A DNA stretch of 64,000 nucleotides, taken from the NCBI GenBank assembly GCA_040377305.1, contig JBEIPA010000004.1:160001-224000 (forward strand), given 5' to 3'. Position numbers and translations under genes: made by a program. The notes beneath the pieces are model-generated. The model was not told the DNA's origin and did no database searches. It saw nothing but the letters and a program-made list of their open reading frames with translations. This DNA comes from Flavobacteriales bacterium. Its GTDB lineage: Bacteria > Bacteroidota > Bacteroidia > Palsa-965. Positions 53,476 to 58,388 of this stretch are shown in pieces. The first letter of the stretch is position 1. Each line of letters begins with the position of its first letter.

Positions 53476-53491
53476 GCATTTGAATTTATTG

Positions 53492-53562
53492 AGGTCCCGA
53501 GCGGATTCGAACCGCTGTAGCAGCTTTTGCAGAGCTGAGCCTAGCCACTCGGCCACAGGACC
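53492..53562 (-). tRNA. tRNA-Cys (GCA)
   Basis: GGTCCTG acceptor stem, anticodon arm CAGCT-CTGCAAA-AGCTG, T-loop GGTTCGAATCC, U discriminator. Confidence 0.97.
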
Positions 53563-54976: not shown

Positions 54977-55327
54977 TTATGCAATTATCTCAACACTTAC
55001 ATGATCAACAGCGCCATTCATCGGCGGATTGATCTTCGTCACCCGTACCAGAAACGAACCCACTTTCGGGTAGTGCATTCTCAGATTGGTTCCTATACGG
55101 CGCGCCACATGCTCAATCAATTTCGAACGAATTGCCATTTCTGCTTTCACTGAATCGTGAATGATGCAGTAGTCAACAGTATCTGTCAGTTCATCCGATT
55201 TTTCTGCCGAGGAGAAATCCGTTTCAACACGAACATCCACAATATATTCTCCGCCGATCTTTCCCTCTTCAGGCAAACATCCGTGGTATGCGTACACTCG
55301 AATTCCGTTTACGTTTATTATGCCCAT
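54977..55327 (-). CDS. folB: Dihydroneopterin aldolase
   Basis: Motifs YAYHGCLPEE, TVDY, LIEHVA and K.NPP. Confidence 0.95.
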   Translation of the reverse strand: MGIINVNGIRVYAYHGCLPEEGKIGGEYIVDVRVETDFSSAEKSDELTDTVDYCIIHDSVKAEMAIRSKLIEHVARRIGTNLRMHYPKVGSFLVRVTKINPPMNGAVDHVSVEIIA

Positions 55328-55348
55328 CAGCTAATCAGAAATTAGAAA

Positions 55349-57385
55349 TCAGCTAATCGAATTTACCGCGCGATCAAGTCTCTGGACAACTACATCTTTT
55401 CCCAGAAGAGCAACCATTTCAAACAACACCGGCCCACCTCCTGCTCCACTTACACAAACACGGAACAACTGCATTACACTGCCCGGATTTGTTCCGGTTG
55501 CTTCTGCAGTATTCTTAAAAACGCCCTCAAACAAAGCAGCAGCAACTACTCGATTACCTGAATCCGGGGAGTAAATCATTTCTTTTATTTGATCATCATT
55601 CGCATCGAAAGCTGCATAAGCATCACGTAGAGCTTCAATAAACAATTTGGATGAAGGATTCCAGCGCTTCTTGATCACAGTGTCATCGTAACTGATAGGA
55701 GCCTCAAAGAAGAATCTTCCATCTCGAATTATTTCGCTAGTGAAGGTCACCTTTTCCTTCATTAAACGACAGACTTCTTGTAAGTAGTTGATGTGTAGAT
55801 TGCCTCCCTGTCGACTACAATGAGTGGAAAATGCTTCAAAGTTTAATGCAATATTTTCTCCGGGTTCGACGACTGTTTGAAAAGACGTCTGCGCGTGAAG
55901 CATAACATTCACAGGGAACTCAACAACAGGAATTTTGGAATTAATCGAATGAACAACAGGCAAGAACACCTCTTCGGACCAAGGAGATTTGAGCGTTAAT
56001 TCATTCCCAAGTTGCTTGTGTGATGAGGAATGATAGTTTAAGGCAACCAAAATACTAGGCTCAGAACGCAGCGTATTTTTAAAAGTTTCGTAACTAATTT
56101 GTGCTGACCGCTCTACAATAACGCCTTCCGGAATACTTTCATTAGCAAAGAGACGGACGGTTTTTTTCTCAGTGGTCGGGTTGGATATCCGAAGTTGCAA
56201 ATCGTAGCGCGTTCCACTTAAGGGCGTATTTTTCAAAAAAGACTCCTGATAAACTTGTGGTAAAATCTCAAATGCCAGTTCGAGATCAGTCTTCATTCTC
56301 AAATATTGTTGATTAAACCACTTTGTCTTTTCCGCATCAAACTTCGCTCCCGACTTGCTCACGCGCTCCAGTGAAAACTCCTGTATCAATTCCTCTTTCG
56401 AGAAAATCTCCTGGTTCCCGCTGCTGTGCCAGCCGAGCAAGGCAAGCATGTTGATAAACGCTTCCGGGAAATATCCGCTCTCACGATAGCCGGTGAAAAT
56501 TTCCGGCTGCCCGGTTTTTACATCTGGCAACGTGCCGCTCAGCGGAAACACGGGAAATCCTAATCGATCTCCGTCGCGCTTGCTTAGCTTTCCGTTTCCA
56601 TCAGGACGTAACAACAAGGGCAAGTGAGAGAACTGCGGCATTACATCTTCCCATCCGAGAAAACGATACAGCAATACGTGCAACGGCGCAGACGGCAACC
56701 ACTCTTCACCGCGAATGACGTGCGTGATTTTCATCGAGTAATCATCCACAATATTCGCCAGGTGATACGTTGGCATTCCGTCGCTCTTGAACAAAACCTT
56801 GTCATCAAGCTGTGATGTGTGCACGACAACCCAGCCACGAATCAAGTCATTGAAACGAACTTCTTCGTTGCGGGGAATTTTTGTACGGACTACATACGGC
56901 TCTCCGGCAGCAATTCTGCGGTTGACTTCATCTTCAGAAAGGGTCAATGAATTCTTCAGCTCCTGACGTGTCAGACCGTTGTACGCAAACGTCTTCTTCA
57001 TTTTCTCGTAACGCTCACGCTGCTCATCAAGTTCTTCTTTCGTGTCGAACGCGTAGTAAGCATTTCCGGAATCAATGAGTTTCTTCGCATACTCCTCATA
57101 AACGCCTTGTTCCTTGCGCACACTTTGCTTGTACGGCGCACAGGGGCCATCACCGAATCCAACTCCTTCGTTGGGCTCAATGCCGCACCACTTCAATGCT
57201 TCAATGATGTATTCTTCTGCTCCCGGAACAAAGCGCTCCTGGTCAGTGTCTTCGATGCGAAGAATAAAATCTCCGCCATGTTTCTTTGCAAAAAGATAAT
57301 TGTACAGCGCAGTCCGCACTCCGCCCATGTGAAGCGGACCTGTTGGACTTGGCGCAAATCGTACGCGAACTCTACGGTTTTCCAT
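55349..57385 (-). CDS. gltX: Glutamate--tRNA ligase with a large insertion in the anticodon-binding region
   Basis: RFAPSPTGPLHMGG (HIGH), LRIEDTD, HVIRGEEW and KLSKR (KMSKS); 678 aa. Confidence 0.95.
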   Translation of the reverse strand: MENRRVRVRFAPSPTGPLHMGGVRTALYNYLFAKKHGGDFILRIEDTDQERFVPGAEEYIIEALKWCGIEPNEGVGFGDGPCAPYKQSVRKEQGVYEEYAKKLIDSGNAYYAFDTKEELDEQRERYEKMKKTFAYNGLTRQELKNSLTLSEDEVNRRIAAGEPYVVRTKIPRNEEVRFNDLIRGWVVVHTSQLDDKVLFKSDGMPTYHLANIVDDYSMKITHVIRGEEWLPSAPLHVLLYRFLGWEDVMPQFSHLPLLLRPDGNGKLSKRDGDRLGFPVFPLSGTLPDVKTGQPEIFTGYRESGYFPEAFINMLALLGWHSSGNQEIFSKEELIQEFSLERVSKSGAKFDAEKTKWFNQQYLRMKTDLELAFEILPQVYQESFLKNTPLSGTRYDLQLRISNPTTEKKTVRLFANESIPEGVIVERSAQISYETFKNTLRSEPSILVALNYHSSSHKQLGNELTLKSPWSEEVFLPVVHSINSKIPVVEFPVNVMLHAQTSFQTVVEPGENIALNFEAFSTHCSRQGGNLHINYLQEVCRLMKEKVTFTSEIIRDGRFFFEAPISYDDTVIKKRWNPSSKLFIEALRDAYAAFDANDDQIKEMIYSPDSGNRVVAAALFEGVFKNTAEATGTNPGSVMQLFRVCVSGAGGGPVLFEMVALLGKDVVVQRLDRAVNSIS

Positions 57386-57515
57386 TGGACTGCAAAGATA
57401 TGCGTTTCAATAGGCAGTTGGCAGTTGTGCGGCAAGCAGAATTATAAACCGAAATAATGTTGACTGCCTACTGCACTCCTGCAAGACTGCCTTCTGTATT
57501 GCTATCTTTGCGCGA

Positions 57516-58388
57516 ATGCAACTCATCTCACCTTCCCGCTGGAAAGACTACGAACTCCTCGACTCCGGTCAGTTCGAAAAACTGGAACGTTTCGGGAAAT
57601 TCATCACGATTCGTCCCGAGCCACAAGCGGTGTGGGATTCTGTTCTTCCACGCACAGATTGGTTAAAACTTGCGCACGTTGAGTTTGTTCCCAAAAGCAG
57701 CTCCGCAGGAGAATGGAAGCAACTCAAGCGCGATGCTGTCGATCGCTGGAATATTCGTTATGCATTGCCGGGAGGAAAAGAAATTGTGATGCGATTGGCG
57801 CTCACCTCATTCAAACACGTTGGAGTGTTTCCGGAGCAAGCAGCGAATTGGGATTATATCTACACGACTCTTCAGTCAATGAAGACAGAGAAACCAAAGT
57901 TTCTTAATCTCTTCGCATACACCGGCGGGGCAACTCTCGCGGCGCGTGCAGCTGGAGCAGATGTAACGCACGTTGATTCCATCAAACAAGTCGTAACGTG
58001 GGCGAATGAAAACATGCAACATTCAGGCCTCGATAATATTCGCTGGATGGTTGACGACGCTCTGAAATTTGTGAAGAAAGAACAACGTCGCGGCAATACC
58101 TACAATGGAATTATTCTCGATCCTCCTGCTTATGGCCACGGTCCTAACGGAGAAAAATGGAAACTCGAAGAGAACATCAACGAAATGGTTAAAGCTGTTG
58201 TTGATCTTCTCGATCCGAAAGAACACTTTCTCATTCTCAACGCATACTCGCTTGGTTTTTCTGCCATGATATTGGAGAATCTTTTCCGCGACAGGAAGAA
58301 AGACCTGGAAGTCGGCGAACTCTTCCTGAATGCCAAACACGGCGGTGTTCTTCCACTGGGCGTATTTGGTAAGCTGAAGAATTTCTGA
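57516..58388 (+). CDS. Class I SAM-dependent methyltransferase (RlmI/YwbD-like)
   Basis: Motifs FKHVGVFPEQ, LNLFAYTGG and ILDPPAYG. Confidence 0.9.
   Translation: MQLISPSRWKDYELLDSGQFEKLERFGKFITIRPEPQAVWDSVLPRTDWLKLAHVEFVPKSSSAGEWKQLKRDAVDRWNIRYALPGGKEIVMRLALTSFKHVGVFPEQAANWDYIYTTLQSMKTEKPKFLNLFAYTGGATLAARAAGADVTHVDSIKQVVTWANENMQHSGLDNIRWMVDDALKFVKKEQRRGNTYNGIILDPPAYGHGPNGEKWKLEENINEMVKAVVDLLDPKEHFLILNAYSLGFSAMILENLFRDRKKDLEVGELFLNAKHGGVLPLGVFGKLKNF

Follow-up and report, generated by a model that had tools for sequence, protein, structure and literature searches.

How did some 145 residues that relatives do without come to lie inside the only glutamyl-tRNA synthetase (GluRS) of this genome, and what are they? 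The question is raised by gltX, which lies on the minus strand of the window (the whole 64,000-nucleotide stretch of DNA analysed here). A first-pass annotation had described a GltX of 678 aa interrupted in frame by a beta-rich segment of about 150 aa, which it likened to uncharacterised phage proteins. The features needed at the outset are:

55349..57385, minus strand: gltX, glutamyl-tRNA synthetase, 678 aa, sole copy in the genome
55793..56251, minus strand: large in-frame insert, residues ~379-531, placed by alignment with 29 relatives and by spacing in 149 GltX
55835..56212, minus strand: predicted single jelly-roll domain, residues ~392-517, from the family alignment, AlphaFold and fold searches

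The enzyme and its large insert

GltX is the only GluRS encoded by the genome, which is 99.99% complete; a tblastn search with GltX returned this copy, a paralogue of GluQRS length and one weak match, and nothing else. The protein scores 443.7 bits against TIGR00464 (curated cut-off 289.95) and carries the Pfam catalytic and anticodon domains, PF00749 and PF19269. The HMGG motif (residues 19-22, window positions 57320-57331) and the KLSKR motif (residues 266-270, positions 56576-56590) are both intact. Since this is the sole copy and its motifs are preserved, GltX presumably charges tRNA-Glu, and we take this activity to be normal.

The large insert consists of extra residues that the GltX of relatives are without. 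Alignment with 29 relatives of 507-556 aa (20 from the same genus and 9 from the same class, including G012/L010, an unpublished genome that is nowhere the sole basis of a claim) places about 145 extra residues between EILPQV and INYLQEV, at residues ~379-531, with edges that can be fixed only to within ~10 residues, since the native linker differs in length from one protein to the next. This puts the insert in the loop joining the first and second helices of anticodon domain IV. Spacing across it is 179 residues here, compared with 30-41 residues in 143 of the 149 GltX measured, and none of the remaining proteins exceeds 69; one more of the 150 sequences examined was not measurable. The best 120 database relatives of GltX are 411-541 aa long, and the exact protein was not found in a 15-billion-entry collection. 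The annotation had given about 500 aa and a short linker at this point for the Bacteroidota enzyme. The segment is missing from all 148 other measured GltX and is not a widespread GluRS subdomain.

The loop itself is known to vary. It is described as insertion-bearing, as adjoining the helix that carries the C36-binding Arg358, and as considerably expanded in Gloeobacter (PMC12088422). The insert occupies the same site as those variable alpha12-alpha13 loop inserts, but it adds a whole predicted domain of ~125 residues, whereas relatives add at most ~35. Inserts of the latter size, different from ours and homologous to each other, are found at this loop in the GltX of L024 (G031) and P0084. 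RLMKEK (~55750-55765) presumably contains the equivalent of the C36-reading Arg358 position. The presumed C36-reading residue is Lys here instead of the usual Arg; Lys is also present in 142 of the 149 GltX measured, so the large insert is not the cause of this substitution.

Among all genomes searched the insert was seen in one only, which, together with the absence of the exact protein from the large collection, might suggest that it was created by misassembly, that gltX is no longer functional, or that the insert is spliced out as an intein or intron. The data make such explanations very unlikely. One Logan contig of 5,110 bases from run X1 covers positions 55329-57600 with 0 differences, at a depth of 18.7 that is flat over the insert; the assembly is not the chimera that the annotation had named as a possible refutation. 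X1 is the sole run with the insert, no RNA run being listed for it, and may be the source sample; the contig therefore excludes assembler error and does not amount to an independent isolate. The sole gltX also keeps its reading frame and its motifs. As for splicing, the insert resembles inteins in being an in-frame insertion in an essential gene, but it lies in a variable loop and not in a conserved motif, it matches no Hint or nuclease family in Pfam or NCBIfam, in agreement with the first reading of the sequence, and its ends lack splice-junction residues. No direct or inverted repeats of at least 8 bases and no target duplication were found at its junctions.

A jelly-roll family of uncultured tailless phages

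Direct searches with the large insert gave little. No homologue was detected in Pfam, PHROGs, annotated phages, viral contigs, PDB sequences or 26 other genomes of the genus, and word-based protein searches returned nothing. The only NCBIfam match was arsC_related (E 0.022), far under the cut-off of that family. A search of 1.84 billion representatives, a set in which any fused form might be clustered under a GltX of ordinary length, gave 0 matches at E <= 0.001, and 5 matches in 400 genomes of the class were at chance level. The ESM Atlas gave no usable match and later three clusters at 0.88-0.89, which we treat as leads only, and all 79 viral loci retrieved with a pattern from the insert N-terminus were attributable to chance.

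The lead to a viral family was a resemblance to a short motif of phage proteins, and it constitutes an uncounted multiple test. Eighteen of the 24 viral loci retrieved with this motif were members of one family, which profile searches extended to 100 domains (41 after dereplication). Its members are single-jelly-roll proteins of uncultured tailless phages of 70-100 kb (IMG/VR records, e.g. L135, L204, L241-L260 and G468), and they fall into three types. The first is a conserved protein of ~232 aa whose gene closely follows that of a P-loop ATPase and precedes genes for small membrane proteins, the second comprises charged full-length paralogues, and the third consists of short, vertex-like paralogues in which strands one and two are missing. 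At least one member occurs in each of the 50 viral records searched, and most have two. One complete record of 72.5 kb has inverted terminal repeats, a GC content of ~0.30 and 87 ORFs, among which there are two endolysin matches and no match to a terminase, portal or head protein; this gene content fits a large tailless phage. Gene context and fold together suggest a capsid role for the family. We found no paper on this phage group in the open-access literature, and the portion of PMC5894146 available to us did not describe it.

Several features of these viruses may be recorded here. Genes adjoining short paralogues (L269:6609-7793, L209:6774-7142, L246:923-1201 and L247:3-275) start with two strands like those that the short paralogue lacks, and these strands also resemble the start of the insert; possibly, strands are complemented between vertex proteins in the viruses. 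Some viruses carry many copies of the family, with 6 in G463, and the copies at L203:5824-7017, L203:3247-3711 and L176 include a tandem two-domain protein and a stand-alone charged copy of 154 aa. Eight family loci lie on genome contigs; these look viral and come from MAG bins of mixed content, so the host cannot be read from them. Contigs of the virus group, L226 (JBBAJS010000009.1) and L227-L232, occur in MAGs labelled Sediminibacterium, Chlamydiae, Ignavibacteria, Gammaproteobacteria, Bacteroidetes and Legionellales, and are probably in part mis-binned.

Probable relationship of the insert to the viral family

The cleanest profile was built from 22 short paralogues gathered by family searches, none of which had been chosen for likeness to the insert. 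With this profile GltX came out on top of the 3,877 host ORFs (local E 0.067); its glocal score was 16.5 bits, whereas the best of the 3,876 other ORFs reached 8.7 and none of 1,000 shuffles scored as high. A profile of all 40 rows again ranked GltX first (E 0.28, 16.3 bits), and none of the 3,876 ORFs or 1,000 shuffles reached this score. The 11 major-capsid-like paralogues alone placed GltX at rank 948, with 87 of the 3,876 ORFs scoring as high, and the 7 charged paralogues alone placed it at rank 1,231, with 117 as high. Single-sequence E-values for the insert improved as the family grew, from 0.11 to ~0.01 and then to 7e-5, and hhalign of the insert against 31 family rows gave E 0.64. In a phmmer search among 4,097 viral segments the best match of the insert was a family member (E 2.8), and the family supplied 5 of the top 20, these rows being kin. 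When a pattern was derived jointly from the insert and L208, 6/6 of its matches were family members; this result is circular, was not counted, and the rows concerned were omitted from the profile tests above.

The alignment of insert and family is collinear and runs end to end, stopping at residue 516-517. Both ends of the domain lie just within the insert and leave a linker of ~13-14 residues at either end. Its only gaps are a 5-residue hairpin deletion and a shortened first loop. Identity to family rows is 7-22%. The insert keeps the invariant Tyr of the family, a conserved Gln and Thr and the hydrophobic pattern, but is without the near-invariant hairpin Gly and the DPYQ motif. In the tree it falls on the short-paralogue side, although grouping with the charged paralogues is not rejected (p-AU 0.285); the domain is likely closest, by sequence, to the short vertex-like paralogues, and closer viral relatives may exist.

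A jelly-roll fold is also predicted by modelling. AlphaFold run on the insert alone gave a pLDDT of 34.1, and fold matches to that model are meaningless. With 54 family rows it returned a mainly beta jelly roll lacking any membrane helix, at pLDDT 85.7 and pTM 0.78, a model that leans on the supplied family alignment, was run without a control, and mainly shows the fold of the family. A Foldseek search with this model matched the coat of the satellite virus STMV (E 8e-4) and some unnamed viral proteins. In VIA the model matched 2y26 (Z 7.5, rmsd 3.0, 101 residues aligned), 6q5u_O, which we take to be the PR772 penton (Z 7.4, rmsd 3.0, 98 aligned), and the cellular HDT1 nucleoplasmin (Z 7.5, rmsd 3.0, 91 aligned), which ties with the viral folds. 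Jelly-roll virion proteins make up most of the top fold matches, and all Z-scores are below 8. The insert would thus share a predicted single jelly roll with the PRD1 and PR772 vertex proteins, satellite-virus coats and the FLiP major capsid protein 5oac (Z 6.9-7.5), but no sequence link joins it to these small viral jelly rolls, and a Z below 8 may reflect a common fold only. The beta-rich, jelly-roll character proposed from the sequence alone is in keeping with these models.

These observations leave room for the view that the insert belongs to some other jelly-roll or beta-sandwich family, cellular or of unrelated viruses, and that its match to the phage proteins is convergence at the level of fold. 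Such a reading would account for the low identity, for local E-values of 0.07-0.28 and for the tie with cellular jelly rolls in the fold search. It would also account for the loss of signal when motifs are masked: with the central segment masked, 5 of 2,000 shuffles and 23 of 3,876 ORFs scored as high, and with the two best-matching segments masked these numbers rose to 69 of 2,000 and 260 of 3,876. It does not readily explain, however, why the insert outranks 3,876 other host ORFs when the top decoys include beta-rich repeat proteins, why the spacings between conserved positions match those of the viral family almost without gaps, or why a family member was its best phmmer match among the viral segments. 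We regard convergence as unlikely. Homology of the insert to the viral jelly-roll family is in our estimation quite likely, though not proven, because identity is 7-22% and the local E-value 0.07. The resemblance to phage proteins that had been suspected at first sight can in this way be tied, by profile ranking, to a specific candidate family.

The annotation had suggested looking for the domain free-standing, in phages and in other housekeeping genes. A candidate phage family was found, and no other cellular copy was: with the family profiles, 400 genomes of the class, 34 of the family and 400 of the phylum gave chance-level matches only, apart from the G000 match in the family and phylum scans, which arises by construction. 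The insert lies within gltX and outside the viral gene context of ATPase and membrane-protein genes. No relic of a tailless virus was found in the host genome, where an ATPase query had no match, and gltX was present in 0 of 5 viral records.

Origin and possible role of the insert

The insert probably stems from a shell protein of a large tailless bacterial virus and would be a decayed version of it. Our leading account, to which we give about an even chance, is that it is a viral passenger, a jelly roll from a tailless-phage shell protein that is tolerated on a working GluRS and is not spliced out. The passenger reading is supported because the insert occurs in one genome only and sits on a very long branch (3.66). 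The domain would have been captured by one recombination event during infection, possibly together with an AT-rich stretch taken up in place of the 3' third of gltX. The modelled barrel, at residues ~392-517, would be tethered to the loop by its two linkers, and the insertion may have been survivable by virtue of both barrel ends running into short linkers within a loop that accepts insertions. Because the conserved hairpin and the DPYQ motif are gone, we infer that the domain no longer builds capsids.

Retention of frame and hydrophobic pattern over so long a branch could, on the other hand, mean selection for function. The viral domain may have been put to use, binding incoming or nascent virion proteins as a decoy or sensor, or shielding GluRS from a viral takeover factor. 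The placement nearest vertex-like paralogues agrees with such a use, as do the open frame and predicted foldability that persist despite the branch of 3.66, and the fast evolution of the adjoining GluRS helices. The vertex proteins P31 and P5 of PRD1, which work by hetero-oligomerising, offer an analogy. A defensive use is nevertheless quite improbable, given that the domain is found in one genome, that the conserved motifs of the family are lost, and that neither a defence-like gene arrangement nor a partner gene was observed. The sensor, decoy or interaction module raised by the annotation is so far unsupported, the insert being seen once and at a site where insertions are known to be tolerated. 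The specific proposal that a vertex protein of the bacterium's own tailless virus, grafted onto GluRS, acts as a decoy or tripwire, either capturing virion subunits and poisoning assembly or linking infection to a loss of tRNA-Glu charging and translation arrest, we hold to be a shade more doubtful still. If it were true, the fusion would be a molecular fossil that names a Bacteroidia lineage as host of uncultured large tailless phages.

A viral domain might also have acquired a housekeeping role, localising or oligomerising GluRS or binding tRNA or partner proteins. Appended domains have precedents in class I synthetases, GluRS included (PMC4893482), and the insertion site adjoins the anticodon-reading helix as described in PMC12088422. 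The closest parallel in that first source is CAAD, a cellular membrane anchor and Curt1 homologue of demonstrated function present in 102 of 279 cyanobacteria. Like the CAAD synthetases, GltX would have recruited a free-standing family as an extra domain of a class I synthetase that has no second copy. But CAAD recurs and has two transmembrane helices with Curt1 homology, whereas the insert has no Pfam match, was seen once, and is predicted by its mainly beta model to be soluble, all-beta and free of membrane helices, in addition to being likely viral. A housekeeping role appears to us improbable, to the same degree as defensive use.

Returning to the passenger reading, the insert resembles the phage single jelly-roll proteins in its collinear profile match, equal length and predicted fold, and differs from them in being fused inside a host enzyme with no viral genes nearby. 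Extra synthetase domains are already known; an origin in a virus shell would be the new element here. We found no report of a virion-derived domain in a tRNA synthetase in the open-access literature, and a prior description is possible. If the homology holds, a viral structural protein has been captured inside a core translation enzyme, and the fusion supplies a clue to the host of an uncultured phage group. The weight of these implications is limited by the single genome and the marginal statistics, and any role of the insert is putative.

The 3' third of gltX and its neighbours

The large insert is not the only peculiarity of this gene, and the following features complete the description of the locus:

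55349..56320, minus strand: 3' part of gltX with raised AT content, starting at codon ~356 and including both inserts, defined by the GC3 change point and the long C-half branch
55550..55603, minus strand: second insert, ~18 aa, residues ~595-612, in domain V, from the alignment and a homologous insert in GltX P0016
54977..55327, minus strand: downstream gene, folB-like, with a similar ORF after gltX in 4/4 relatives checked

The AT-richness of the 3' third, first noted by eye, is confirmed by codon composition. Up to codon ~356 GC3 is 0.55, and from there it is 0.37 with no recovery before the stop codon, a shift matched in 0 of 500 permutations, and in 3 of 500 when both inserts are removed. 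Ten relatives have weaker GC3 shifts (z at most 2.5 vs 4.7 here). Both the N- and the C-terminal halves of GltX are native and group in trees with one sister of the genus, L002; the C-half branch is long, 0.48 compared with 0.076 for the sister. Replacement of the allele from a distant lineage is not supported, as both halves join this same sister.

The second insert, also noticed initially, is missing in all 29 genome relatives. A homologous insert occurs in P0016, which belongs to a different GltX lineage and is without the large insert. Identity over the patch around it is 52% to P0016 and 37% to the sister, whereas over the N-terminal part of GltX the corresponding values are 82% and 93%. 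The long C-half branch, the fall in GC3 and the P0016-like second insert together make the 3' third look patched by recombination, and the sharing of the second insert with P0016 points to patchwise exchange of gltX 3' ends.

The gene downstream of gltX (54977..55327) is folB-like. Because this neighbour is the same as in relatives, there is no provirus at the 3' end of gltX. The only tRNA gene in the window is that for tRNA-Cys, at 53491-53562 on the minus strand.
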